The notes under the pieces: generated by a model | The model's input: the letters and a program-made list of their open reading frames with translations, nothing else | What the model was told of the DNA's origin: nothing | Database searches by the model: none | Source: Patescibacteria group bacterium | GTDB lineage: Bacteria > Patescibacteriota > Patescibacteriia > CAIXNZ01 | Direction: 5' to 3' | Length of the DNA: 64,000 bases | Assembly (NCBI GenBank): GCA_041651155.1 | Contig: JBAZJU010000005.1 | Location: forward strand, 2,653-66,652 | Part shown: in pieces, positions 18,362 through 43,262 of the stretch | Layout of the letters: the number at the start of each line of letters is the position of its first letter | Position numbering within the stretch: position 1 is the first letter of the stretch | Made by a program: the position numbers and the translations under genes

Positions 18362-19858
18362 ATGAATTACTCAAAGATATTTTTTTATTCCTGTCTATTT
18401 TTTATTATCGGTGTCTTTGTCCACTCAGTATTGTCCATTGAGGCTTTTGTGATTTATTTAATTCTACTTGTTTCAATCTTATTTTTAATTTTAAGCTTTA
18501 AAAATAAATATTTTTTAGTGCTTGGTTTGTGGGGGCTTTTTTTGTTTTTAGGACTCTGGCGTTACCAGCTTTCTTTACCGCAAAAAAATCCAGGTCAGAT
18601 TTTTTATTATAATGGCCAGGAAGTTCAGATTAGGGGTTTTATTGATAAGGAACCTGACCAGAGGGAAGACAAGGTAAAACTGGAATTAAAAAGCCAAGAA
18701 ATTTTTCTCAGCAATTCTTGGCAAAAAGTATCAGGAAAAATTTTGGTCACTAATTATTTGTATCCCGAATATAGTTATGGCGACAGACTGGAGTTTACTT
18801 GTAATTTATTAAGCCCGGAGAATGTCCAGGGTTTTGCTTATGATGATTATTTAGCGCGCTATGATATTTATTCAACCTGTTATAATCCCAAGATAACTTT
18901 GCTAGCTAAAGGTCAGGGCAATTTTGCCTTGTCTGAGATTTTAAAGTTAAAGAGTTTTTTTATTGCCAGGCTGAATTATGTTTTGCCTGAGCCTCAGTCC
19001 TCATTTTTAGCCGGGCTTTTGATTGGCGCCAAAAGGGCAATTCCCGGGGATTTACAGACAGCTTTTAGTAAAACAGGAACCACGCATGTTGTGGCAGTGT
19101 CTGGCTATAATGTGACAATTATTGCTGTTTTTTTAATGCTCATCTTCCAGAATTTAGGTCTGGGCAGAAAGAAATCCTTTTGGTTGATTATTGGTTTTTT
19201 AATTTTCTTTGCTATCATGACTGGATTGCAATCCTCCTGTATTAGGGCGGCTATTATGGGAGGCGTAGTTTTACTGGCAAATTATTTGGGCAGGTTAAGT
19301 AAAATTAGAAATGTTTTAGTTTTAACTGCAGTTATAATGATTGCCTTAAATCCCAAGATTTTAGTTTTTGATCTGGGTTTTCAGCTCTCGTTTTTAGCAA
19401 CGTTAGGCTTAGTTTATTTGAATCCAATATTACTACAAATATTAAAAATTAAAAATTTAAAATTATCCGCCAGAGGCGGAAAAATTGTAAAATTGATTTT
19501 CGGCGATTTTTTGTTGACAACTTTATCAGCAATTATTATGACCCAGCCCATAATTTTATATAACTATGGCAAAATTTCTTTAATTGCGCCTGTGGCAAAT
19601 ATTTTGATCTTGCCTTTTGTGCCTCTAGCCATGCTTTTAGGCTTTTTAACTGGAATTTTAGCCATGGTCTGGACTGGATTGGGCTGGGTGGCTGGCTGGA
19701 GCGTTTGGCTGGTTTTAACCTATATTATCTGGATTTTGGAACATTTGGCTAAATTGAATTGGGCGTATTTTGAATTGCCGAAAATTAGTGTTTGGGTCAT
19801 GCTGATTTTTTACGCAATAATTATTGGTTCTATTTGGAGATTTAAAAAATCAGTTTAA
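18362..19858 (+). CDS. comEC: ComEC/Rec2 DNA-uptake channel, N-terminal OB/DUF4131 plus competence (PF03772) membrane domain
   Basis: 498 aa, polytopic. Motif HVVAVSGYNVTIIAVFLMLIF. Confidence 0.8.
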   Translation: MNYSKIFFYSCLFFIIGVFVHSVLSIEAFVIYLILLVSILFLILSFKNKYFLVLGLWGLFLFLGLWRYQLSLPQKNPGQIFYYNGQEVQIRGFIDKEPDQREDKVKLELKSQEIFLSNSWQKVSGKILVTNYLYPEYSYGDRLEFTCNLLSPENVQGFAYDDYLARYDIYSTCYNPKITLLAKGQGNFALSEILKLKSFFIARLNYVLPEPQSSFLAGLLIGAKRAIPGDLQTAFSKTGTTHVVAVSGYNVTIIAVFLMLIFQNLGLGRKKSFWLIIGFLIFFAIMTGLQSSCIRAAIMGGVVLLANYLGRLSKIRNVLVLTAVIMIALNPKILVFDLGFQLSFLATLGLVYLNPILLQILKIKNLKLSARGGKIVKLIFGDFLLTTLSAIIMTQPIILYNYGKISLIAPVANILILPFVPLAMLLGFLTGILAMVWTGLGWVAGWSVWLVLTYIIWILEHLAKLNWAYFELPKISVWVMLIFYAIIIGSIWRFKKSV

Positions 19859-19929
19859 GCTTTAAAATTAAGACATGTTTTTATTTAGAGAAATATTAAT
19901 TCGCCCAGATTAAATGATATAATATAATC

Positions 19930-20802
19930 ATGGAAAGATATTTAAGAAAAATAACCAAAATTTTAGGCAGCGCCTTGCTGATTGTTTTTTTATTAATTGC
20001 TTTTACTGCCCATTCGCAGAGCCAGAGGCAGAATCTGGAAATTGATTATCTGGATGTCGGCCAGGGCGATGCGATTTTAATAAAAACTCCTTATCAACAA
20101 AACATTTTAATTGATGGCGGGCCTGATAATAAAGTTTTAGCTGCTTTGGGCAAAAATTTGGCTTTTTATGATAAAGATATTGACCTGGTTATTTTAACTC
20201 ACCCTCACACCGACCATGTTATTGGCTTAATTGAAATTTTACGGCGTTACAATGTTAAAAAAGTTTTACTGACTGAAATTAAAAATAATTCCCCGCCTTA
20301 TTTAGCTTTTTTAGAGGAAATTAAAAAACAAAACATAATTGCAGAAAAAGCTGACAAGCCCCAGGATATTATTTTAGGCCAGGATCTGGATTTGAAAATT
20401 TTATATCCGTTTAATGATATTAGCTCAAAGAATTTTGAGGATTTAAATAATTCTTCAATCATAGTAAAATTAATTTACAAAAATAATTCCTTCTTATTTA
20501 CCGGTGATGCGGGCTTTCCTGAGGAACAGGATTTATTGGCCAGTAAAGTGGATTTAACTGCCAATGTCTTGAAAGTCGGCCATCATGGCAGTAAATATTC
20601 AACGAGCCAGGAGTTTTTAGCAGCGATTCAGCCGCAAGACGCCATAATTGAAGTAGGCGCAAATAATTCTTATGGCCATCCGAATTTGGCAACTATCAAT
20701 AGATTAGAAAAAAATAATATTAAAATTCTTAGAACTGATTTAAGCGGGACAATAGCAATTATTAGTGATGGGCAGAATATTAAAATAAAAGCCGAGAGAT
20801 AG
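19930..20802 (+). CDS. ComEC-associated metallo-beta-lactamase-fold protein, encoded as a separate gene (split ComEC)
   Basis: N-terminal signal/TM. DVGQGDAILIKTP, HPHTDHVIGL, VGHHGS. A 71-nt gap separates it from the competence-domain gene. Confidence 0.8.
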   Translation: MERYLRKITKILGSALLIVFLLIAFTAHSQSQRQNLEIDYLDVGQGDAILIKTPYQQNILIDGGPDNKVLAALGKNLAFYDKDIDLVILTHPHTDHVIGLIEILRRYNVKKVLLTEIKNNSPPYLAFLEEIKKQNIIAEKADKPQDIILGQDLDLKILYPFNDISSKNFEDLNNSSIIVKLIYKNNSFLFTGDAGFPEEQDLLASKVDLTANVLKVGHHGSKYSTSQEFLAAIQPQDAIIEVGANNSYGHPNLATINRLEKNNIKILRTDLSGTIAIISDGQNIKIKAER

Positions 20803-22486: not shown

Positions 22487-22632
22487 GGTTTAATTATGAC
22501 AACCACCAAAGCAATACAACTGCAGAAAATTGATTTAAGAACCAATTTATTAGGCTTATTGCTTTTATTAAGCTGCTTTTTGGTGGTTAGACTTTTTAGA
22601 TAACAAATTTACATAGATTGTAAATTAAACTA

Positions 22633-22660
22633 ACCGCCAAAAGGCGGTTGGTTTTTATTT
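22633..22660 (+). terminator. Rho-independent terminator
   Basis: AACCGCC-AAAA-GGCGGTT followed by GGTTTTTATTT. Confidence 0.6.
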
Positions 22661-22700
22661 AGTCCTTTAAACTAAAAAACCATAAACGAGGAGGGCAACG

Positions 22701-22886
22701 ATGGACGTAATCAGAGTACAGGAATTTCCCCAGAAAAAGGTCTGTAAAAAATGCAAAGCAGATTGGAATGAAAAAAAGAATGCAGATGGCCAGTGCCAAA
22801 TCTGCGGCTCAACTGAAAGCAAATGGGCTCATTATGACCCTGAAACCAAAGAAATAGTGGTAATGCCGAGATTAGTTGGGCTTTAA
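22701..22886 (+). CDS. Small zinc-ribbon protein (61 aa; CKKC ... CQIC)
   Basis: Strong SD GAGGAGGG upstream. Two CxxC pairs. GC-rich hairpin downstream. Confidence 0.5.
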   Translation: MDVIRVQEFPQKKVCKKCKADWNEKKNADGQCQICGSTESKWAHYDPETKEIVVMPRLVGL

Positions 22887-22895
22887 GGCTATGTC

Positions 22896-22935
22896 GGGCG
22901 GGTTAAGCTATTTTAACCCGCCCTAAATTTTGCTA
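22896..22935 (+). terminator. GC-rich hairpin with a weak T-tract
   Basis: GGGCGGGTTAAGCTATTTTAACCCGCCC. Confidence 0.45.
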
Positions 22936-22992
22936 TTTTAAAAAAATAAGGTAAAATTAAAACAGGAGCAAACAAAAAGAGGAGGAATTAGC

Positions 22993-23205
22993 ATGGCAAA
23001 AGAAGGTGATGAAGCAGAAGTATTTTTCATAAGCCAGGGCCGTAAATTAGTAGAAGGTTTTTATGCTTATAGCAAGGAGGCAAAAGCCCTGCAAAGAAAA
23101 ATTGGATGTTCAGATGTCCGCAGAGGGGCAAGGATTTTTCGCTTGGAGGATATAAATGAGCGATTAATTCCCACGCTTCAGCGCAGGTTGGATGATTTAG
23201 TATAG
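22993..23205 (+). CDS. Hypothetical small protein (70 aa)
   Basis: Strong SD AAGAGGAGG upstream. Terminator downstream. Confidence 0.45.
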   Translation: MAKEGDEAEVFFISQGRKLVEGFYAYSKEAKALQRKIGCSDVRRGARIFRLEDINERLIPTLQRRLDDLV

Positions 23206-23220
23206 CGATCCCTTATTATT

Positions 23221-23247
23221 AGACCCTCGGTCGGGGGTCTTTTTTTA
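23221..23247 (+). terminator. Rho-independent terminator
   Basis: AGACCCTCGGTCGGGGGTCTTTTTTT. Confidence 0.55.
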
Positions 23248-23316
23248 ACTTTCTTTTAATATTTTAATAATCGTATTTTATGCTATAATTTAAGCATAAC
23301 TCTTAATTCCAAAATC

Positions 23317-26300
23317 ATGCTTAATCTAAAATCAAAGAGCTCTGTTTTTTTATCCAAGCTAACCATGTCCGCGTTAGTTTTTTTGTTTATTTTTACTTCA
23401 AGCCCAGGTTTGGCTTTGGCAGCTGAAGAAGCTGTAAGCCCTGAAGCGCCTGCTGACACAAGTGCTTCAGCTGGATCTACTGATACTTCCACACCAACAA
23501 CTGACACAACAACCCCCACACCAGCAGAAGCGCCAGCTGATCAGGCGAGTTTGGATGGAGCTAAAGCTGATACAGAATCGCAAGATCAGGGCATGGATAC
23601 TTTGACTGAAGAGGAAGATCCTGAAAATAGCCCAGAAACAAAAAAAGCCGCTGAGAATAAATTTAATCTTGAGACCGATGGTTCTACTGGTGCTTTAATT
23701 TATACTTTTCCTTTAACTATTCCGCCGGGTAGAAATAATTTACAGCCTGATTTGAAATTAGTTTATAACAACCAAAATAACGATAACACTAATATTATTG
23801 GTTATGGCTGGTCTCTAAATATCCCTTATATTGAAAGACAACCTAAAATAGGCGTAAATAATCTTTATGATGAAAATTATTTTACTTCTTCTCTATCTGG
23901 TGAATTAGAAGATATTAGTTTGACCGATGGCCATCATGGCACCTATGGCTCAAAAGTTGAAAATGGCGATTTTTTAAACTACGAATTTAATGCGAATAAT
24001 TATTGGGTTGTCACAGATAAAAAGGGAACATTCTATAGGTTTGGTTATAATTCAGGCGCTCGCCAAGATGATCCGAATGACAGCTCTCATGCTTTCAAGT
24101 GGATGCTGGAAGAAGTACGAGACACAAATAACAATTACATTAAATATGAATATTATAAAGATGCAGGCCAGATATATCCAGCTGATATTAAATATACTGG
24201 CTATAATACAACCGATGGCATTTTTGAAATAGATTTTTTAAGAGAATCAAGGAATGACGACCTGGCTTCTTTTAAAACAGGGTTTGAAGTGACTACCAGT
24301 TATCGCATAAATGAAATTCAAGCAAAAATTAATGGCACCTGGGTCAAGAAATATCAATTAGATTATTCTTCTGGTGATAATGGAGTTCGTTCAATGTTAA
24401 ATACAATTACTGAAACTGGCCAGGATGAGCAGAGTAATACTATTACTTTGCCGACCAATGATTTTACATATCAAACTAAAACAAAAAGCTGGACAGAGGA
24501 TACGAACTATATAATCCCAGAAACTTTTGTCACCAATTCCTTCCGTGATTTTGGCACACGTATACTAGACATAAATGGTGATGGACTGCCGGATATAATT
24601 CGTAGCCAATGTCTCTATAATGGAAATTCATATAAAAAAGTTTATATAAATCAAGGCGACGGCACCGGGTGGGTAGAGGATACTAATTATACTATACCTG
24701 TCTGTTTCGTTAGTTCCGGCGGTTATGATACAGGAGCACGGCTGGCTGATATTAATGGCGATGGGTTTGTAGATATTCTTTATGCCTATAGACAATATGA
24801 TGGTTCAATATATAGCAAAGTTTACTTAAATCAAAACGATGGTACAGGTTGGGAAGAAGATACAAATTGGAGCATACCAGTTGATTTTTGTGGCGGGGGG
24901 CATGGCTCGGCCGCTAGATTGAGTGATGTAGATGGTGATGGTCTTGTAGATATTTTATCTTCCCAGTTGGATTATTACCAGCAAATAGTAGATCATGTAT
25001 ATATTAATAAAGGCGACGGTACTGGCTGGCAAGAAGACACAAATTATACAATACCAGAAAGCTTTGTTACTTATTCTTTGCACGATATGGGGACTCGTAT
25101 AATTGATGTAAATGGAGATGGGTTACCTGATATCCTTCGTTCTCAGCAGGGTGTTTCAGGAAATCCAGATATTAGGCATGTGTATATAAATAAGGGGGAT
25201 GGAACCGGTTGGGCAGAAGATACTAATTATACGTTACCTGAAAATTTTGTGACATATTCAGGATATGATTTTGGGGTGCGTACAGCAGATATAAATGGCG
25301 ATGGCCTAGAGGATATTATACGTGCACAAGATGGTATCTCTGGATATCCAGATATTAGGCATGTATATATTAATAATGGTGATGGCACTGGCTGGACAGA
25401 AGACACAAACTATACAATTCCCGAAAATTTTGCCGTAACGTCTTGTTTTGGGAATGGTACACAAATAATCGATATAAATGGTGATGATTTAGCTGATATT
25501 ATACGTGCACAAGATGGTATTCCCGGATATAGTATCCCTGATATAAAAGAGGTTTACATCTCAAATCCCCATAACGCAGATTTGTTATCACAAATTACCC
25601 AAAGCAGGGGTGGGCAGAGTAGTGTAGAATACAAAGGTTCTCCCCAATATTTAGACCTTTCTGTTAATTTATTAAATCCGCATTTACAGAAAATTATACA
25701 GACCGTCTCTCAAATAGAATATGATGATGGCCTGAATAACACATGGACTGAAAGTTATCAATACGCTGACGGCTTGTATTACTTTTCTGATTATCTTAAC
25801 CGCAAGTTGGCTGGTTTTGGCAAGGTGACGAAAACTGACGGAGAGGGCAATGTAACCAAGACCTATTTTCACCAGGGCAATGACAGTGATTCAAGCCATG
25901 GCGAGTATTCTGATGATGTTTCAAAAATTGGTAAGGTTTATCGGACTGAAAGTTATGACGACAGCGATAACTTGTATTCCAAAACCATAAACAAATGGGA
26001 AAATTATGATTTGGGGAATGACCAGGATTTTGTGAAATTAACCCAGACAATTGCTTCCAGTTATGACGGTAATACCAGCCATAAAGATAAGGCAGAAACC
26101 TATACTTATGATAATGCGAATGGAAATCTAACAGAGAAAATAACCTGGGGCGAGGTTACTGGTTCTGATAACGGCACCTTTACAGACACCGGTTCTGATA
26201 AATACACAACTGATATTGATTATGCCGCCACAACAGGCAGCGCGGTTATTGGCTCACCTTCCCATGAAACAACAATTGACCAGAGCTCAAATAAAATTAA

Positions 26301-29300
26301 GGAAACAAAATATTATTATGATACTTTAAGTTTGGGTTCAGTTGGGGCAGGCAATTTAACCAAGCAGGAAATGTGGAAATCAGGCACAAGTTATATCAAT
26401 GCCCAGAAAACTTACAATTCTTATGGCTTGGTGACTGAAGAAACAGATCCACGGGGCAAAACCACTGATTATACATATGATACTTATAACCTTTATCCTG
26501 CGAGTGTTACGAATGCTTTAAGTCAAACTAGCAGTTATGCTTATGATTATTCTTCAGGCAAGCCGACTCAGGTTACAGACCCTAATAGCCGGGTATTTCA
26601 GACTGTTTATGATGCCCTGGATAGGGTTAAGCAGGAAAAACAGCCTGATTTAACTACGCCAAGCACTTTGGTTGTGAAATCAGAATATACTTATACTGAT
26701 AATACTGTGCCAACTAAAGTCCAGCAGGCAAATAATCTGGATTCCTCAACTAGTTTTGATATTTATACTTATTTAGACGGGTTTGGCAGGAAAATTCAGG
26801 AAAGAAAAGAGGCTGAGGACACAAATACTTTTAGTGTTAAAGATTTTGTTTACAATGATCTGGGCCTGATTGAAAAAGAATCATTGCCGTATTTTTCGTC
26901 TGGTTCAAGCAGAACAACTGCCACAACTGACACTTCTCTTTATACCAATTATACTTACGACCCATTGCAAAGAGTTTTAACAGCAATTAACGCGGTTGGC
27001 ACAACATCCAATACTTATGATGACTGGAAACTGACAATCACTGACGCTGAAAGCAATGTTAAAGATTTATATAAAGATGCCTATGATAATTTGATCCAGG
27101 TTGACGAGCATAATGACAGCAACACCTATTCTACTTATTATGAATGGAATGGCTTGTCTAATTTGACCAAAATAACAGATTCGCAGGATAATGTCAGGAA
27201 TTTTACTTATGATGGCTTGGGCAGAAGATTAACAGCTGAAGATTTGCATGACACGTCTGATTCATATTTTGGCGCTTGGACTTACAGCTATGATGATTCA
27301 GGCAATTTAACCTCTCGTTTAGACCCCAAGAGCCAGACAGTCAACTGGACTTATGATGATCTTAACCGCGTCTTGACTGAAGATTACACTGGCCAAACCG
27401 GCACAGAAATAACTTATGCTTATGACACTGGCACTGACGGGATTGGCAGATTATATACTGCGACAACTCCGGATGTTGTCACGACTTATGCTTATAATGC
27501 TTTAGGCGGGGTTAAAACAGAGAATAAGAATATTAATTCTGCTGATTATTTGACAGAATACGAATATGACCGCCAGGGGAACCAGACTTTGATAACCTAT
27601 CCCAATGACATTGAAGTAAAATACAATTACAACACGGCCGGGCTTTTAGAAGAAGTTGAAGCTAAAGCATCAGGCGATCCAAGCTATACTGATTTAGTTA
27701 GCGATTATGATTATTCGCCATTGGAGCAGGTTGCTTATCAGGAAGATGCTAATGGTGTTAAAACATATAATACTTATGATGCTGCAGAATTGTATCGGTT
27801 AAAGGAAAAGATTACGGCTAGTGTTGACGAAGGTGGTTTTGAAGATCTTTATAATATAGCTATGGCTGGTGGGGCTGGAAACGGTAGTAAGTCCTACGAA
27901 ATTACGAATCCGTATGAATATACGAATAGTTCCTCAGTGAGCTTGCCTGGGATAACTGATAATCCGGTTGTTCAGGGTTTGGGTTCCATTGTCAAAGCAG
28001 CCCTCGCCCCCCTTGTCATTCAGAGTGAGCCATTGAAAATGGCGAGCGAAGAATCCTTTACTTCAAATAATCCCTTTTCAGCTGCCTTTGACTTGGGTAA
28101 CAATGCGAATACTGCGAATGTTGTTAAGGGTTTAGGCTTAATTGTTAAAGCAGCCCTTTCACCCACCTCTGTCATTCTGAACGGCAGTGAAGAATCTGTT
28201 ACCACCCCTTCTGCTTATTCAGCTGCTTTTGATTTGGGTAATAATGCGAATGCTACGAATGATATTAAGGTTGAACCTAAACTAGACCTCTGGGGCAAGC
28301 CAGTTGATTACAAACTACCCAAAGACAAAACCATTTATCTTAAATACGACAAAGAAGCCAAGCCCGGGGAACTGCCAAAGGAAGCCATTGAATTTCTTGA
28401 TAAGTCTGGCAGTAAAATTAATTCTCCGGAATTAAAATCCATTTATCCTCAAGAAGCGATTGATTATTTTAATTCAGGGCCAAAATCAATTACCGGCAGT
28501 TTGTCGGGCGCAGGCGCGTCATTAAGCAAAAATGATTTTCATATGGCTCTGACCGGCACAATGCCCAATCCTTCAACTAATTTGAATTCAGAAAGCAAAT
28601 GGACAACAGAAAATATTATTTACAACCAGGGGTTTGAAGACGGGTTTAACAGCTGGACCTGGCAGAATAATTTAGACGCCACTCGCCAGGAAGATTGCAC
28701 TGTTTCTTACGCAGGCGATTGTTCAGAAAAGGCGATTGTTAATACTGCCGGTTCATTTTGGCAAGTGCAATTATCCCAGATTTTACGGCTTGATCAGGAT
28801 ACAAATTACAAATTGCGCTTTAAAGCTAAAGCGTCAACTGCCACCACTTTTAGCTTTGACGCTGAAGAAAACCACAGCCCATATAATCTGCTTGGCTTAT
28901 GGGCAAGCAATGTTGCGATTGGCACTGACTGGACAACTTATGAATATTCTTTCACTGCCTTGGCCAATGATCAAAACGCCAAAATAACATTTCACCTGGG
29001 CGCAAATTCAGCCACTTACTGGTTTGATGAAATTGAACTCATACCTGATACGTTTAACAAAATCAAAAATCCCAGTTTTGAAAACAGCGCTGCTTACTGG
29101 GGCTTTACCAGTTTTGGCGGAGGCTATGGCGCAGGCACCAACAGCATTGATTGCGGTTCTCCGGTTGAAGGCAGCTGTGATGACAATGTTGACATCACTG
29201 TCACCGGCAATTACTGGGAAGTGAGCTTGTCCCAGCCCACTGCTTTGGACAGTACCAAGACCTATGAATTATCTTTTTACGCCCGCACTGATTCCCCATA

Positions 29301-37552: not shown

Positions 37553-38074
37553 ATGAAAAAAATTATAAAGATCGCCTTGTTAATAATTTTTATTATCTTA
37601 TTAGTCTGTTTGTTTCTCTATATATATTTTATAAATCTGAATAAAGTTGTTGTTTTCGAAAATAATCAAAAGGCAGAATATTATGTGCATGAATATTGGG
37701 TATATAAAGAGATTAAGGATAATAAATCATATATCGATATAGCATTAGGACTTCATAGGCCTTGGTCGATTAAGTATCTTCATACCCTACCCAAATATGA
37801 GAGAGTTGCAGTTTTACATTTAGTTTTTAATGGTAATATCTTAGAAGAATCTAAATATTTTTTTCTTAAGCTTTCTAGCCTAAATGATAAAGATAAAATA
37901 ATAAATTTGGTAGGTGTCGCGCAGCTAAATAATACCTATTTATCGAATATAAATTTAGAGGGGAAGGAAGATAATAATTCACAAGTGGGGTACTATTTGA
38001 AAAAAATTAATTTAATCAATGCTAAAAGCATTGATGTCGATGCGGAATCATATTGGTTTGCTCAAGGAAAATAA
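37553..38074 (+). CDS. Candidate immunity protein 4 (N-terminal TM, 173 aa)
   Basis: Directly downstream of cassette 3. Hydrophobic N-terminus. Confidence 0.5.
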   Translation: MKKIIKIALLIIFIILLVCLFLYIYFINLNKVVVFENNQKAEYYVHEYWVYKEIKDNKSYIDIALGLHRPWSIKYLHTLPKYERVAVLHLVFNGNILEESKYFFLKLSSLNDKDKIINLVGVAQLNNTYLSNINLEGKEDNNSQVGYYLKKINLINAKSIDVDAESYWFAQGK

Positions 38075-38587: not shown

Positions 38588-40258
38588 ATGTTATCCAGCC
38601 AGAAATTAAGAGAGATTTTAGTTAAGCCGGGCTATATTAAAGAGCTTGATTTTAGCACAGCCCAAAAAGAGGCCAAGCTCAAGAAATTAAGCCTGGAACA
38701 GGTTTTGGTTGATAATGGCTTAATCAAGGATGAGAATTTGGGGCAGTTAATTGCCGAAGCTCTGCAATTTCGCTATGTGAGTTTGGCCAAAAAGACTATT
38801 AAACCGGAAATTTTAAAGATTATTCCGGAAATTGTGGCAAAAAAACAGCTGATCATTGCTTTTGATAAAAATAAAGACGGTCTGTTTGTGGCTATGAATA
38901 ATCCTGATAATTTGCAGTTCCAGCATTTTTTGGCCAAAAAAACTGGGGATAAAATAATTCTATTTTACGCCACCCAAAAAGATATTTTAAAATCTGCCAG
39001 GCTTTATCACAAAGAACTTAAGGAGGAATTTTCAGATTTGATTTTAAAGCATTTAAAACAGGTTAAAACAGGCGGTGATGAAAAATTGCCGATCATTAAA
39101 ATTGTTGAGTCCCTGATAAAATACGGTTATGAAAACCGCGCCTCAGATATTCATATTGAACCGCATGACAATGACACTCTTATTCGTTTTAGAATTGACG
39201 GAGTTTTGCATGATGTCTTATCAATTCCTAAAGAATATCATGACATGATCGTGTCCAGAATAAAAATCATGTCTAATTTACGCACTGATGAACACAAAAG
39301 CAGCCAGGATGGCAAATGCAGATTTAATTTAGCTGATGAAAAATTGGATATCAGAGTTTCTGTTGTGCCAATCATTGAGGGCGAGAAAATTGTGCTGCGC
39401 TTACTCTCCAAAAAAACCAAAGAATTAAATTTAGAAAATTTGGGTTTAAGTAAAGCTGAAGCTAAAAAAGTAACAGAAGCCATCAAAAATCCTTATGGCA
39501 TGATTTTGGCAACTGGCCCGACCGGATCTGGCAAAACCACGACTTTGTATGCGATTTTAAAGATTTTAAATAACCGCGATGTTAATATCTCCACAATTGA
39601 AGATCCCGTTGAATATGATGTTGAAGGCATTAACCAGATTCAGGTGGATAGCGAAACCAATCTGACTTTTGCCAAAGGCTTAAGATCTATTTTAAGGCAG
39701 GATCCTGATATTATTATGGTAGGTGAAATCAGAGATGAGGAAACAGCGAAAATTGCCATTAATTCAGCCATGACCGGGCATTTAGTATTATCAACTCTGC
39801 ATACTAATGATGCCGCCACAACTTTGCCTCGTTTGCTGGATATGAAAGTTAAACCGTATTTAATTGCTTCTACCGTGTTAATTGCTATTGCCCAGCGTCT
39901 GGTCAGAAAAATTTGCCCCAATTGCATTAAAAGTTATAGCTTACCAAGCGAGGAATTTTTAAAATTAGTTCCCAAAACTATTGGTTCAAAATTTACTGAT
40001 GGCAAAACAAAAATTACTCTTTATAAAGGCGAGGGCTGTAAGTTGTGCCATAAAACAGGTTATTTGGATCGGCTGGGAATTTTTGAAGTTTTAACAGTCA
40101 GTCCGGCCATTCGTGATTTAATTGTAAAAAAAGCTACAAGCCAGCAAATTAAAAAACAGGCAATTGATGAAGGCATGGTCACCATGTTAGAAAACGGGCT
40201 TGAAAAAGCTCTTTTGGGCTTAACCACTCTGGAAGAGGTTTTAAGAATAATAAAATAA
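38588..40258 (+). CDS. pilB: Type IV pilus / T2SS assembly ATPase (GspE/PilB family)
   Basis: 556 aa. Walker A GPTGSGKTTT. Asp box and His box. C-terminal CxxC...CxxC zinc motif. Confidence 0.9.
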   Translation: MLSSQKLREILVKPGYIKELDFSTAQKEAKLKKLSLEQVLVDNGLIKDENLGQLIAEALQFRYVSLAKKTIKPEILKIIPEIVAKKQLIIAFDKNKDGLFVAMNNPDNLQFQHFLAKKTGDKIILFYATQKDILKSARLYHKELKEEFSDLILKHLKQVKTGGDEKLPIIKIVESLIKYGYENRASDIHIEPHDNDTLIRFRIDGVLHDVLSIPKEYHDMIVSRIKIMSNLRTDEHKSSQDGKCRFNLADEKLDIRVSVVPIIEGEKIVLRLLSKKTKELNLENLGLSKAEAKKVTEAIKNPYGMILATGPTGSGKTTTLYAILKILNNRDVNISTIEDPVEYDVEGINQIQVDSETNLTFAKGLRSILRQDPDIIMVGEIRDEETAKIAINSAMTGHLVLSTLHTNDAATTLPRLLDMKVKPYLIASTVLIAIAQRLVRKICPNCIKSYSLPSEEFLKLVPKTIGSKFTDGKTKITLYKGEGCKLCHKTGYLDRLGIFEVLTVSPAIRDLIVKKATSQQIKKQAIDEGMVTMLENGLEKALLGLTTLEEVLRIIK

Positions 40259-40260
40259 AT

Positions 40261-41355
40261 ATGAATGAGGGGAAAGAATTTAAGTATTTAAACTGGCACA
40301 TTAATTTCGGTTTTAATGTGGAAAAGATTTTATTTGCCAAAACTTTAGCCACGATTTTAAATTCAGGCATTAATATCGCTGATGCTTTGCGCATTGTGGA
40401 AGCCCAGTCAGTCGGCCAATTTAAGCTTATTGTGGCTAATGTCAGAAAAGGCGTGGAAAGCGGAGAAAATTTAGCCAAAGCTTTAGCTAAATATCCCAGA
40501 TATTTTAATCCAGTTTATATTGGCTTGGTTAATGTGGGTGAAAAAACAGGGCGTTTAGTGGAATGTTTAAATTATGTGGCCGAGCAGCAGGAAAAAGATC
40601 TGGAATTATCGCGCAAAGTCCAGTCAGCTTCACTTTATCCCATGATTGTCTTTGCGTGCTTAATGGCTCTGGCCGCGCTTTTGAGCTATTATATTTTGCC
40701 CCAGCTGATTGTGGTTTTCAATTCATTTAATATGCCTTTGCCCTGGACCACAAAATTGCTTTTAGCCGTCGCTCAGATTATCAGGGATCATGGGATTTTA
40801 ATTCTAGTTTCAATCTTGGCATTTTTAATTTTTGTCAGGTATTTAGTCAGAACCAAAACAATCAAGCCCTATTGGCAGGCAGCTGGCTTAAGCATTCCTT
40901 TTTTCGGGGAACTGATCAGAAAATTAAACTTAGCGCGTTTTTGCTTGATTATTGGCGTGCTTTTAAAAAGCGGTATCCCGCTAAATGAAGCTCTTGATAT
41001 CGGCATTGAGAGTTTAAGCAATGAAGTTTACAAAATTCAGCTTAAAAAAGTTAAAGCCAGAGTAGTGGCCGGATTATCATTGGGCGAAGCAATTGAAAAT
41101 TTAAATAAGCCTGATTTATTTCCCAAAGTAGTGTCGCAAATGATTAGCGTAGGTGAGCGCACAGGCACTTTGGAAAAAAATATTTTATACTTGTCTGATT
41201 TTTACCAAAAAGATGTTGATAATATCAGCAAGAATTTATCCAATGTGCTGGAGCCGATTTTATTGATTGCGGTCGGATTAGTCGTGGCCTTAATTGGCGT
41301 GGCAATAATCTCCCCAATTTACGAATTTATTTCAACACTTAGCCACTCGATATAA
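40261..41355 (+). CDS. pilC: Type IV pilus platform protein (GspF/PilC family)
   Basis: 364 aa with duplicated GspF domains; polytopic. Confidence 0.85.
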   Translation: MNEGKEFKYLNWHINFGFNVEKILFAKTLATILNSGINIADALRIVEAQSVGQFKLIVANVRKGVESGENLAKALAKYPRYFNPVYIGLVNVGEKTGRLVECLNYVAEQQEKDLELSRKVQSASLYPMIVFACLMALAALLSYYILPQLIVVFNSFNMPLPWTTKLLLAVAQIIRDHGILILVSILAFLIFVRYLVRTKTIKPYWQAAGLSIPFFGELIRKLNLARFCLIIGVLLKSGIPLNEALDIGIESLSNEVYKIQLKKVKARVVAGLSLGEAIENLNKPDLFPKVVSQMISVGERTGTLEKNILYLSDFYQKDVDNISKNLSNVLEPILLIAVGLVVALIGVAIISPIYEFISTLSHSI

Positions 41356-41820
41356 ATGACAAATAAATTGCCAATTTCAAAATTTCAAACTTCAAATCCA
41401 GGATTTACTTTAATAGAATTATTAATTGTGATTGGAATAGTAGTTTTACTGGCTGCTATTTTTTTGCCTATTGGCCTGAATTTTTATCAGATTCAGGTTT
41501 TAAATCAAACCAATGACCAGGTCATCTGGCTTTTAAAACAAGCCAGAAGCAGTGCTTTAAGCCAAAAGAATAATTCTGCATTTGGCCTTTATTATAATAA
41601 TCAGCAATTAACTTTATATCAGGGCGCAAGTTATGAGGCAAGGCAAGTAGATTTTGATGTAAATTATAAAATACCCAGTAGTGTTAAAATTGAGGGCTTA
41701 AGCGATATCAATTTTAGTTTGGCTCAAGGTTTGCCCGGCCAAACTGGCACAATAATTTTAAGCTCTAATCAAATTACCAAAACAATTACGCTTAATTCAA
41801 TCGGTCTGATTGATTATTAA
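41356..41820 (+). CDS. Prepilin-type N-terminal cleavage/methylation domain protein (pseudopilin or minor pilin)
   Basis: G|FTLIELLIVIGIVVLLAAI class III signal. Confidence 0.75.
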   Translation: MTNKLPISKFQTSNPGFTLIELLIVIGIVVLLAAIFLPIGLNFYQIQVLNQTNDQVIWLLKQARSSALSQKNNSAFGLYYNNQQLTLYQGASYEARQVDFDVNYKIPSSVKIEGLSDINFSLAQGLPGQTGTIILSSNQITKTITLNSIGLIDY

Positions 41821-41822
41821 TT

Positions 41823-43262
41823 ATGAAAAATAAAAATGGTTTTACTCTAATTGAAATTCTGCTGGCAGCGGCTATTTTTTTAATTATTTTTTTAGGCGTT
41901 AGTTTTTTAATGCTTGATAATCTTAATTTTAGTTTTAATAATCAGGAAAGAATAAGGGCTGAATTTTTAGCTCAAGAGGGAATTGAAGCCACTAAGGCGA
42001 TTGCCGATAATAATTTTAAGGATTTAACTGATGGGAGCCATGGTTTGGCTATAAATAATAATCAGTGGCAGCTGACTGATGCAGCCGAAAACCTTAATCA
42101 AACATTAAAAAATGGCCAGCGCCAGATTATTATTAGTGATCAGGACACGAATTTAAAAAAAGTTGAAAGTTTAGTGACCTGGCAGGATATTAAAAATAAT
42201 TCTAAAGAAACTTCATTGCTGACTTTTTTAAGCAACTGGCAGAGAACTTTAGGCGGGGATTGGTCAGAGCCGGTTGTGGATGGCTTTTATGCCATGGTCT
42301 CAGAAGCACGTTCTGTTTTCCATGTGGGCAATTACACTTATATCGGCGCTTTGAATTTTAAAGATGAGCCTGATTTTTATGTTTTTGACACTGCTGATTT
42401 AAAAAATCCCGCCTTAGTTGCCACTTTGGATTTAGGCGCTAACACTTGGGCCACGATTAATTCTATTTATGTGGTTGGCAATTATGCGTATTTAGCCACT
42501 AATATAAATGGCCGGGAATTTGTTGTTTTAGACATTAGCGATCCGCAAAATCCAATTGATGTTGCTCATCAGACAACGCAAACCTTAACCGACGCCACAG
42601 GCATCCATGTTTCAGGCGATTATGCTTATCTGACTAATTTATGGAAAAAGAACCAAAAACAGCTTTATGTTTTTAATATTGCCAATCCATTAAACCCCGA
42701 TTTTGTGTCCAGAATTGACCTGGCTGACTCAGCCTATAATTTAACTTTCCAGAATAATTACGTTTTTGTGGCTAGCGGCAAAGATGACCAGGAATTGCAG
42801 ATTATTGACGTGGCTGATCCTCAAGGCTCTACTCTCTATACCAGCTTAGATTTGCCAGGCGCAAATGATGCTTATGATGTTTATGTTAAAGATAATAAAG
42901 GTTATCTGGTTAGAGCCGCAGGCACTGACAGTTCTGAATTTTACATTTTAGATTTAAGTAATTTGCAATCCCCGCAAATAATCAGTTCCTTAAAATTAGC
43001 TTCTAATTTCAGGACAGTTTATGCTTTTGGCCCGGCCTCGGCCGAGACGGGCGATAAATATATGTTTGTAGGCGGTGATCTGGATAAAGAGCAATTTCAG
43101 GTCATTGATATTTCAGATTTAAATAATCCCAGAGTAATTTCAACTTTAGATATTAATGGCATTGTTTATGATTTGGTGACTGATGATGTGGCAGCCTACC
43201 TAGCTGTGGGCGGCGGGTTAACAGGCTTTAATGGTTTAAAGATAGTGGTACCGGGGCCATAA
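41823..43262 (+). CDS. Prepilin-like protein with a C-terminal LVIVD-type beta-propeller repeat domain (large minor pilin or tip adhesin)
   Basis: GFTLIEILLAAAIF signal. Repeated YVVGNYAYLATN / DVADPQ / DISDLNNP motifs (six to seven blades). Confidence 0.7.
   Translation: MKNKNGFTLIEILLAAAIFLIIFLGVSFLMLDNLNFSFNNQERIRAEFLAQEGIEATKAIADNNFKDLTDGSHGLAINNNQWQLTDAAENLNQTLKNGQRQIIISDQDTNLKKVESLVTWQDIKNNSKETSLLTFLSNWQRTLGGDWSEPVVDGFYAMVSEARSVFHVGNYTYIGALNFKDEPDFYVFDTADLKNPALVATLDLGANTWATINSIYVVGNYAYLATNINGREFVVLDISDPQNPIDVAHQTTQTLTDATGIHVSGDYAYLTNLWKKNQKQLYVFNIANPLNPDFVSRIDLADSAYNLTFQNNYVFVASGKDDQELQIIDVADPQGSTLYTSLDLPGANDAYDVYVKDNKGYLVRAAGTDSSEFYILDLSNLQSPQIISSLKLASNFRTVYAFGPASAETGDKYMFVGGDLDKEQFQVIDISDLNNPRVISTLDINGIVYDLVTDDVAAYLAVGGGLTGFNGLKIVVPGP

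Follow-up and report, generated by a model that had tools for sequence, protein, structure and literature searches.

The question raised by this locus is why a giant RHS (rearrangement hotspot) protein of a Patescibacteria group bacterium should carry, ahead of its RHS-associated core, a long segment that does not look like part of the RHS shell. The gene lies in a stretch of 64,000 nucleotides from contig JBAZJU010000005.1 (assembly GCA_041651155.1), referred to here as the 64-kb window, in which it is the single giant RHS gene. It is an open reading frame (ORF) of 2701 aa at 23317..31422 on the forward strand, as are all features described below. The G+C content of the window is about 37%, and an identical protein has already been deposited (MFA5188562.1). 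A sequence-only reading of the gene had proposed an SpvB/TcB-like head, six FG-GAP blades, a tandem repeat and two modules resembling carbohydrate-binding modules (CBMs) inserted before the core, and considered the whole architecture unusual. Our analysis suggests that the insert is instead one occupant of an insertion hot spot that is used across a Patescibacteria family of such proteins, and that the head is of an ordinary type.

The insertion site was located in homologs by two anchors, aa 1300-1500 and aa 2165-2500, and the family counts refer to 119 close Patescibacteria homologs among 120 matches listed. In 37 of the 119, aa 1500 joins aa 2165 directly, with 0-2 residues between, and these insert-less homologs fix the ends of the interposed segment to within 0-2 residues. 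It spans aa 1501-2164 (664 aa), and the earlier proposal that it interrupts the RHS shell before the core is borne out. The other 82 homologs have between 37 and 1347 aa inserted at the same point, and the idea that the insert is peculiar to this protein does not hold. Because most relatives contain an insert in the same loop, the segment is best regarded as one instance of a hot spot in a clade-wide design, and not as a one-off oddity. In an AlphaFold2 (AF2) model of aa 1300-2499, built from a 32-sequence alignment and with a mean predicted local distance difference test score (pLDDT) of 68.8, the site is flanked by consecutive shell strands, ...RLKEKITA and KRIQDLAYTY, and because it falls between these two strands we take it to be a β-hairpin turn. 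The block after the insert aligns in a profile search to residues 308-663 of TccC2 and 325-689 of YenC2, which places the site in the middle of the TcC part and rules out an insertion at the TcB/TcC junction.

Behind a tether, the insert contains three β-sandwiches that AF2 models with pLDDT mostly 63-93, with brief dips, and with shell strands flanking. Module 1 (28612..29061, aa 1766-1915) matches Pfam CBM_4_9 over aa 1766-1897 and has pLDDT mostly 80-90, and module 2 (29062..29502, aa 1916-2062; pLDDT 63-90) is covered by a second CBM_4_9 stretch; the two stretches give E 6.6e-25 and 88.5 bits against a cutoff of 25.9. The modules are 30% identical to each other, both have a DCxxxxxGxC cysteine pair, and the motifs NQGFEDGF and NPSFENS are located at aa 1770 and aa 1918. 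By sequence, the nearest solved relative of module 1 is 1gui, the beta-1,3-glucan-binding CBM4-2 of Thermotoga laminarinase 16A (phmmer E 1.6e-9), and 4mgq is matched too (E 1.3e-4). A Foldseek search with the AF2 model returns Rhs, teneurin and TcB-TcC shells as the top matches (Rhs shells E 2e-19), followed by the tandem CBM22-1-CBM22-2 of Xyn10C (4xup, E 2e-12). In the model the CBM part is all-beta, with pLDDT of about 63-91. On these profile and model matches both ~150-aa modules are assigned as CBM4/9/22-type beta-sandwiches, as the sequence-only reading had proposed, and neither Pfam nor AF2 indicates that aa 1765-2060 is some other fold, disordered or part of the shell, the outcomes it had named as contrary. 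The CBM-like folds are thus present, but the count of two modules is incomplete, since a third folded module had been missed. This is an immunoglobulin (Ig)-like module of the Rha78A N-terminal type (29503..29808, aa 2063-2164; pLDDT mostly 74-93), which matches Pfam Ig_Rha78A_N over aa 2065-2159 (E 4e-8) and for which the rhamnosidases 6i60 and 3w5m are matched in the profile search. The Sec-type signal peptide, the nature of the C-terminal toxin and the orphan array, all described below, had also gone unnoticed.

The first ~265 aa of the insert (27817..28611, aa 1501-1765) form a low-confidence tether that contains a K/E/P-rich stretch and a duplicated repeat. AF2 gives pLDDT 23-50 and only a few short helices for aa 1506-1769, and we consider the region probably flexible; disorder, which had been raised as a concern for the insert, may therefore apply to the repeat-bearing part but not to the confidently modelled CBM part. 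The two copies of the ~45-50-aa repeat, at nt 27967-28125 (aa 1551-1603) and 28120-28269 (aa 1602-1651), are identical at 29 of 54 aligned positions (54%), with a local score of 127 compared with 23 +/- 4.6 in 1000 shuffles, about 22 standard deviations above, so the reported tandem repeat stands. As DNA the copies are ~70% identical, and a Tandem Repeats Finder scan (minimum score 40) did not report them. Among the 120 listed, 81 further homologs bear an insert, and in none of these inserts, including that of P0002, the closest listed homolog (69% identity in the best local alignment), was the repeat found; the K-rich part of the tether is common to P0002-P0005. We also considered whether the copies could be the template and variable repeats of a diversity-generating retroelement. 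The mismatches fall on all base pairs, with C>T the commonest, and are not adenine-specific, and no reverse transcriptase is present among the ORFs scanned. Because the DNA mismatches lack an adenine bias, we interpret the repeat as a local duplication and not as a retroelement target.

Among the 82 inserts, the CBM-CBM-Ig cassette is found in 11, and an Ig-like module in 50, comprising these 11 and 39 others. The commonest occupant of the site, present in 41, is a ~210-aa module without annotation and without a match in Pfam; it has the motif STFYPDxDxExxSVDG...W..IHDA..GT and is seen, for example, in P0040 (aa 1475-1686) and also in P0012, P0034, P0084 and P0009. Other inserts contain Laminin_G_3, Bact_surface_Ig-like together with Gly_rich_2, ALK_LTK_GRD (an ALK/LTK-type glycine-rich domain), or Ig_Rha78A_N in two to three copies, and NCBI names two of the homologs 'carbohydrate binding domain-containing protein'. 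Large inserts follow a common grammar, in which a low-complexity tether is followed by one or more binding modules and then by one or two Ig domains, and the CBM pair fills the binding-module slot. When the nearest scaffold relative of each protein was found using aa 780-1500, the presence of an insert differed in 25 of 117 pairs, at up to 81% scaffold identity, and the class of insert differed in 38 of the 117, with some pairs ~80% identical in scaffold. Because nearest scaffold neighbours so often differ in their inserts, the site appears to have been filled, emptied or swapped many times. In four homologs (P0165, P0196, P0212 and P0225) Ig_Rha78A_N-like modules lie upstream of the pre-insert anchor, which suggests that the N-terminal half of the shell has a second site of insertion.

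The modules are not restricted to RHS proteins. When the cassette was searched exhaustively against 1.84 billion representatives, 2263 matches were obtained at E <= 1e-3, of which 145 newly seen ones were examined. Non-RHS proteins with tandem Ig arrays make up 95 of these, including the 5999-aa P0132 with 20 Ig copies, and a further 19 are non-RHS proteins with CBM arrays, such as P0138 with its many CBM copies; RHS proteins or fragments account for the others, 23 with Ig modules and 8 with CBM modules. Among these 8, at least four from the 50%-identity library (P0137, P0145, P0151 and P0152) are full-length RHS proteins with the same order of pre-insert block, CBM, CBM, Ig and post-insert block, and the others are fragments. 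The cassette itself is thus also shared with further RHS proteins, and the same CBM-CBM-Ig cassette is present in the non-RHS P0133. Over its full length the cassette is 38-57% identical in more than 10 proteins. Because the same modules form long tandem arrays in giant non-RHS proteins, the CBM and Ig modules most likely belong to a shared toolkit of surface or adhesin proteins.

The scaffold into which the cassette is set begins with a Sec-type signal peptide (23317..23421, aa 1-35; MLNLKSKSS...SSPGLALA followed by AEE), with a K-rich n-region, a hydrophobic core and an ALA-A site, and an acidic Thr/Pro-rich low-complexity linker (23422..23661, aa 36-115), both of them read directly from the sequence. 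By a crude rule, 91 of the 120 family members have a signal-like N-terminus. The SpvB/TcB N-terminal domain follows (23662..24516, aa ~116-400), with a Pfam SpvB match over aa 122-284 (E 5e-16, 59 bits against a cutoff of 22) and a counterpart in the SpvB structure 6p0x, and then a six-bladed FG-GAP beta-propeller (24517..25596, aa ~401-760). FG-GAP_3 of Pfam matches the propeller in five stretches (E 4e-25), and the blade count is taken from the sequence, in which six D(I/V)(N/D)GD(G/D) motifs are located at aa 418, 478, 537, 597, 658 and 719 with a spacing of ~60 aa. Blades 4-6 show a recent tandem duplication at the DNA level (24994-25432, 183-nt period, 2.4 copies, 73% matches). A family profile built from 32 members and searched against PDB sequences matches the TcdB2-TccC3 fusion with E 4e-61, and TcdB1 (residues 339-797) and YenB (343-803) are matched over profile positions 318-802, where FG-GAP repeats appear in the family consensus. 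The SpvB/TcB-like head and the six blades are thus confirmed by these matches, but their combination is not unusual: because SpvB, propeller and RHS follow one another in the TcB-TcC order, with a profile match of this strength, the predicted arrangement is the canonical TcB-TcC (BC) layout, here in one chain, and is ordinary.

The N-terminal part of the RHS/YD shell (25597..27816, aa ~761-1500), whose last strand is ...LYRLKEKIT, is matched by Pfam RHS_repeat in five stretches (85 bits) and by TIGR01643, with Tse5 and RhsA as solved relatives, and AF2 models aa 1320-1505 as all-beta with pLDDT 80-94. The C-terminal part, which starts ...MQGKRIQDLAYTYDNVGN (29809..30513, aa 2165-2399), is the block with the TccC2 and YenC2 profile matches and has pLDDT mostly 67-91. 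It runs into the RHS-associated core (30514..30804), which contains the putative aspartyl autoprotease residues and the DPLGL motif (aa 2491-2495) and is matched by the NCBIfam model TIGR03696 (Rhs_assc_core) over aa 2400-2495 (E 2.8e-16, 59.8 bits against a cutoff of 32.5). R2438, D2451, D2491 and G2494 hardly vary across the family alignment (A2), and the catalytic rule for SGS1 and TcC is one Arg and two Asp (PMC9935623). The core is predicted to be competent for autocleavage from its Arg, its two Asp and DPLGL.

The final ~205 aa (30805..31422, aa 2497-2701) are likely to be a toxin with an NlpC/P60-like papain fold, a cell-wall hydrolase by a marginal assignment from Pfam, AF2 and Foldseek. 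The top 22 Foldseek matches to the toxin model are all NlpC/P60 peptidoglycan hydrolases (MepS, LytE, SagA). Only two relatives of the tail are detectable, and Cys2590 and His2655 are invariant in the three sequences. A 177-aa ORF with an N-terminal membrane anchor (31427..31960) starts 5 nt past the stop codon of the toxin gene and is, by its position, a candidate immunity gene. It has no match in Pfam or PADLOC, and a PADLOC scan of the neighbouring ORFs found nothing.

Beyond it is an array of three orphan RHS C-terminal cassettes with small ORFs (32019..38074), recognised from translations and DNA homology. Orphan 1 (32019-33572), with Ntox44, is followed by a small ORF at 33583-34191, orphan 2 (34073-35473) by one at 35493-35885, and orphan 3 (36014-37537) by one at 37553-38074, and each of the small ORFs has a hydrophobic N-terminus. 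Orphans 1 and 3 begin with M(Q/V)GKRIQDL, which corresponds exactly to aa 2167 of the main protein, at the 3' edge of the insert, and the orphan DNA is 73-82% identical to nt 29801-30690 of the main gene. This homology begins 14 nt 5' of codon 2167 (29801-29815 in the main gene). In the main gene this stretch codes for KDYFV, the final strand of the Ig module; its counterpart in the orphans is GAGGATTATTTTATT, with a Shine-Dalgarno-like GAGGA. In the main gene an AAGGA precedes the in-frame ATG of M2167 by 10 nt, and for this reason an internal start at M2167 is conceivable. The toxins of orphans 2 and 3 have in common a C-terminal domain whose HExxH motif (ALMHEMGLW and TLIHELGHW) suggests a zinc metallopeptidase toxin; no confident family was found for this domain in Pfam. 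Orphans of a related locus, L001, have their starts within the Ig module or take in the entire cassette, and because these starts are elsewhere than in our window, the breakpoints vary between genomes. The entire cassette is found in P0121 (L001 20834-22663), at the locus that encodes homolog P0004. This ORF of 609 aa starts with a signal-like N-terminus of its own and continues through the K-rich tether and CBM-CBM-Ig into the C-terminal shell, where it ends after the first ~40 residues; it represents an orphan targeting cassette or else a fragment of a pseudogene.

The upstream neighbours of the RHS gene are leuS, a GT2 glycosyltransferase, a split ComEC, ndk and a HicA-like ORF, and downstream are the type IV pilus genes pilB and pilC and a pseudopilin with LVIVD repeats. 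The split ComEC consists of a Competence/DUF4131 ORF and a separate metallo-beta-lactamase ORF at 18362-20802, flanking the RHS locus, and the pilus cluster (38588-43262) encodes a PilB-like ATPase, a PilC-like platform and the N-methylated pseudopilin; both flanking systems are tied to DNA uptake or surface contact. The 830-nt intergenic region 5' of the RHS gene (22487-23316) contains seven terminator-like hairpins compared with 1.1 expected, with strong 8-12-bp stems at 22627-22654, 22896-22923 and 23221-23240, of which the third lies ~77 nt ahead of the start codon, and no match to this region was found in Rfam.

Several known systems resemble parts of this protein. The Tc (toxin complex) BC cocoons, TcdB2-TccC3 of Photorhabdus and YenB-YenC2 of Yersinia entomophaga, share SpvB, the six-bladed propeller, the RHS shell, the core with one Arg and two Asp, and a variable toxin. 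Here, however, one polypeptide bearing a Sec signal peptide makes up the whole, no TcA is nearby, the 664-aa tether and CBM-CBM-Ig insert is present at about TcC residue 308-325, and the toxin looks antibacterial (NlpC/P60-like) and is followed by immunity-like and orphan cassettes as in Rhs systems. Classical Rhs/YD toxins (the type VI secretion effectors RhsA, Tse15 and Tse5; Gram-positive WapA) share the shell, the DPxGL core, the toxin with a candidate immunity gene and the orphan cassettes, but in our protein the N-terminal half is of the TcB type, an adhesin cassette interrupts the shell, two of the orphans begin exactly at the insert boundary, and there is no PAAR, VgrG or type VI secretion context.

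The closest parallel to the display of binding domains is the mosquito protein SGS1, a Tc-like Rhs/YD cocoon in which, by electron cryo-microscopy, a CBM, a carbohydrate-recognition domain of the lectin type, a second propeller and a wedge domain are insertions that decorate the exterior (PMC9935623). Both proteins hold binding domains as insertions within the Rhs/YD sequence, and the display principle thus has a solved precedent in SGS1. SGS1 is eukaryotic, its cargo is transmembrane helices and not an enzyme, and the search of PDB sequences with our profile did not return it. In SGS1 the CBM (aa 1345-1494) and the lectin (aa 1575-1715) are inserted ~1000-1400 aa before the autocleavage site at 2733/2734 (PMC9935623), whereas the insert described here ends 332 aa before the cleavage motif. 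We considered whether the insertion sites are the same; because the distances to the cleavage site differ, the loop is probably not that of SGS1. Bacterial teneurin-like proteins are mostly Sec-dependent surface YD-shell toxins with variable adhesion domains and C-terminal toxins with immunity proteins (PMC13018210). Their adhesion domains are outside the shell sequence, N-terminal with TTR, FN-plug and TIP, and they have no SpvB, whereas the adhesin here is in a shell hairpin. A 2487-aa putatively secreted RHS/YD polymorphic toxin of the Saccharibacteria 'T. rhizospherense' has domains of carbohydrate-binding type (PA14 and galactose-binding) and a neighbouring immunity gene (PMC6031116). It is, like ours, encoded by a member of the candidate phyla radiation (CPR); its binding domains differ, and we liken the two by description only.

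As an explanation of the whole we favour, as reasonably probable, a Sec-secreted BC-type cocoon with a tethered external adhesin that would deliver a cell-wall hydrolase. A single-chain toxin resembling TcB-TcC would be secreted through Sec, and SpvB, the six-bladed propeller and the RHS repeats would build a closed shell. The aspartyl protease of the core (R2438/D2451/D2491, DPLGL) would cut off the ~205-aa hydrolase, which would be held inside the shell, and the hairpin between ...LYRLKEKIT and RIQDLAYTYD... would display the ~265-aa tether with CBM_4_9-CBM_4_9-Ig. The modules would most likely stand out from the shell on its outer side as a carbohydrate-binding adhesin, such that the loaded cocoon could dock on a polysaccharide of the target or host envelope and the toxin could attack peptidoglycan, while the next gene's membrane-anchored product would shield the producer. 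The targeting modules of the insert and the toxins of the orphan cassettes would both be exchangeable.

Several points weigh against this explanation, and three others were considered. The exterior position of the modules is one that we infer, because insert size varies from 0 to 1347 aa on a constant scaffold, the folds are of adhesin type and SGS1 offers a precedent; and the same holds for the binding of carbohydrate, for peptidoglycan as the target, for the role in immunity and for the route by which the toxin would be released. Targeting of glycans by the insert modules is plausible, but membership of CBM_4_9 does not guarantee a functional cleft, and glycan binding is putative: only two aromatic positions (W in FWQVQ and Y/W in NHSP[YW]) align with Trp of 1gui, residues that presumably contact the ligand. 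For the toxin, the Pfam NLPC_P60 match (E 1.4e-4, 22.3 bits) is just below the 23-bit cutoff, the AF2 model has pLDDT 72 with only one of five models confident, and the best Foldseek E is only 1.4e-3. A conserved toxin-immunity pair is not supported: a single related toxin was found (P0130), and the ORF that follows it shows no homology to the 177-aa ORF, so that the immunity assignment follows from position. Finally, no TcA-like translocator is present in the 64-kb window or in the three related loci L001-L003. This last point counts at the same time against the view that the protein is the BC part of a three-part Tc toxin, in which an unlinked TcA would bind the receptor and the CBMs would add auxiliary avidity. 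Such a view is encouraged by the strong TcB-TcC homology, which includes a propeller homologous to that of TcB, the part that docks on TcA (PMC9935623). Besides the RHS gene, however, no ORF in the window is longer than 1107 aa and none of those scanned has a TcA-type Pfam domain, and the toxin together with membrane-anchored candidate immunity proteins would point to an extracytoplasmic bacterial target for which no injector would be needed. We regard a three-part toxin as very improbable.

The main rival to an outward-facing adhesin is that the CBM/Ig cassette anchors the protein on the cell-wall or S-layer glycans of the producer itself, for contact-dependent delivery in episymbiotic attachment. 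Wall-binding domains anchor Gram-positive surface RHS toxins such as WapA, and our protein has a signal peptide with no other recognisable anchor (LPXTG, S-layer homology or transmembrane) visible in the sequence. Ig and CBM modules of this kind also make up tandem arrays in giant proteins of a type typical of the cell surface, and the locus adjoins type IV pilus genes used for surface contact. Self-anchoring would, however, leave the 37 insert-less homologs among the 119 without any anchor, and the fast turnover of inserts among close relatives is easier to reconcile with an external target that changes than with a self ligand that does not; we consider self-anchoring unlikely, although it deserves to be kept in mind. 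The fact that insert-less homologs are common and their scaffold alignment uninterrupted across the site could also be seen as the mark of a neutral passenger, tolerated at a permissive loop after domain shuffling, or of a variable decoy surface, in either case with no role in delivery. The ~45-50-aa repeat, which sits in low-confidence sequence and has no counterpart in the inserts of other listed homologs, would fit such a passenger. The folded modules do not: they are well conserved between proteins with different tethers, as the identities of the cassette across its bearers illustrate, they recur in the grammar of tether, binding module and Ig, and all identified modules are of binding or adhesion fold classes and not random domain types. 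A neutral or decoy insert is in our opinion improbable, and the tethered external adhesin is the reading that we retain.

Literature searches on RHS or Tc toxins in Patescibacteria or the CPR turned up no work on this family or its insertion hot spot, only one sentence in PMC6031116, and a clade-wide hot spot for adhesin modules in a Patescibacteria BC-type RHS family is apparently undescribed. The value of the finding is in this clade-wide pattern, as a database entry already exists for the protein by itself and SGS1 offers a solved structural precedent for the design. A bolder proposition, which we put forward only tentatively and think somewhat doubtful, is that the hairpin is an evolved "display socket" for interchangeable receptor-binding cassettes, such that, with orphan C-terminal cassettes starting at its 3' edge, targeting and toxin would be recombined independently by these episymbionts in a TcA-independent, two-axis polymorphic toxin system that helps to set the range of hosts or competitors. 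For Patescibacteria, which spend their lives attached to other microbes, the means of recognising and harming hosts or rivals are poorly known. Swappable sugar-binding or Ig modules at one permissive loop of a secreted cocoon would reveal a natural site that tolerates very large insertions in RHS/Tc cocoons, which could be useful for engineering Tc-type delivery shells, and would provide a testable handle on target specificity in this uncultured group.

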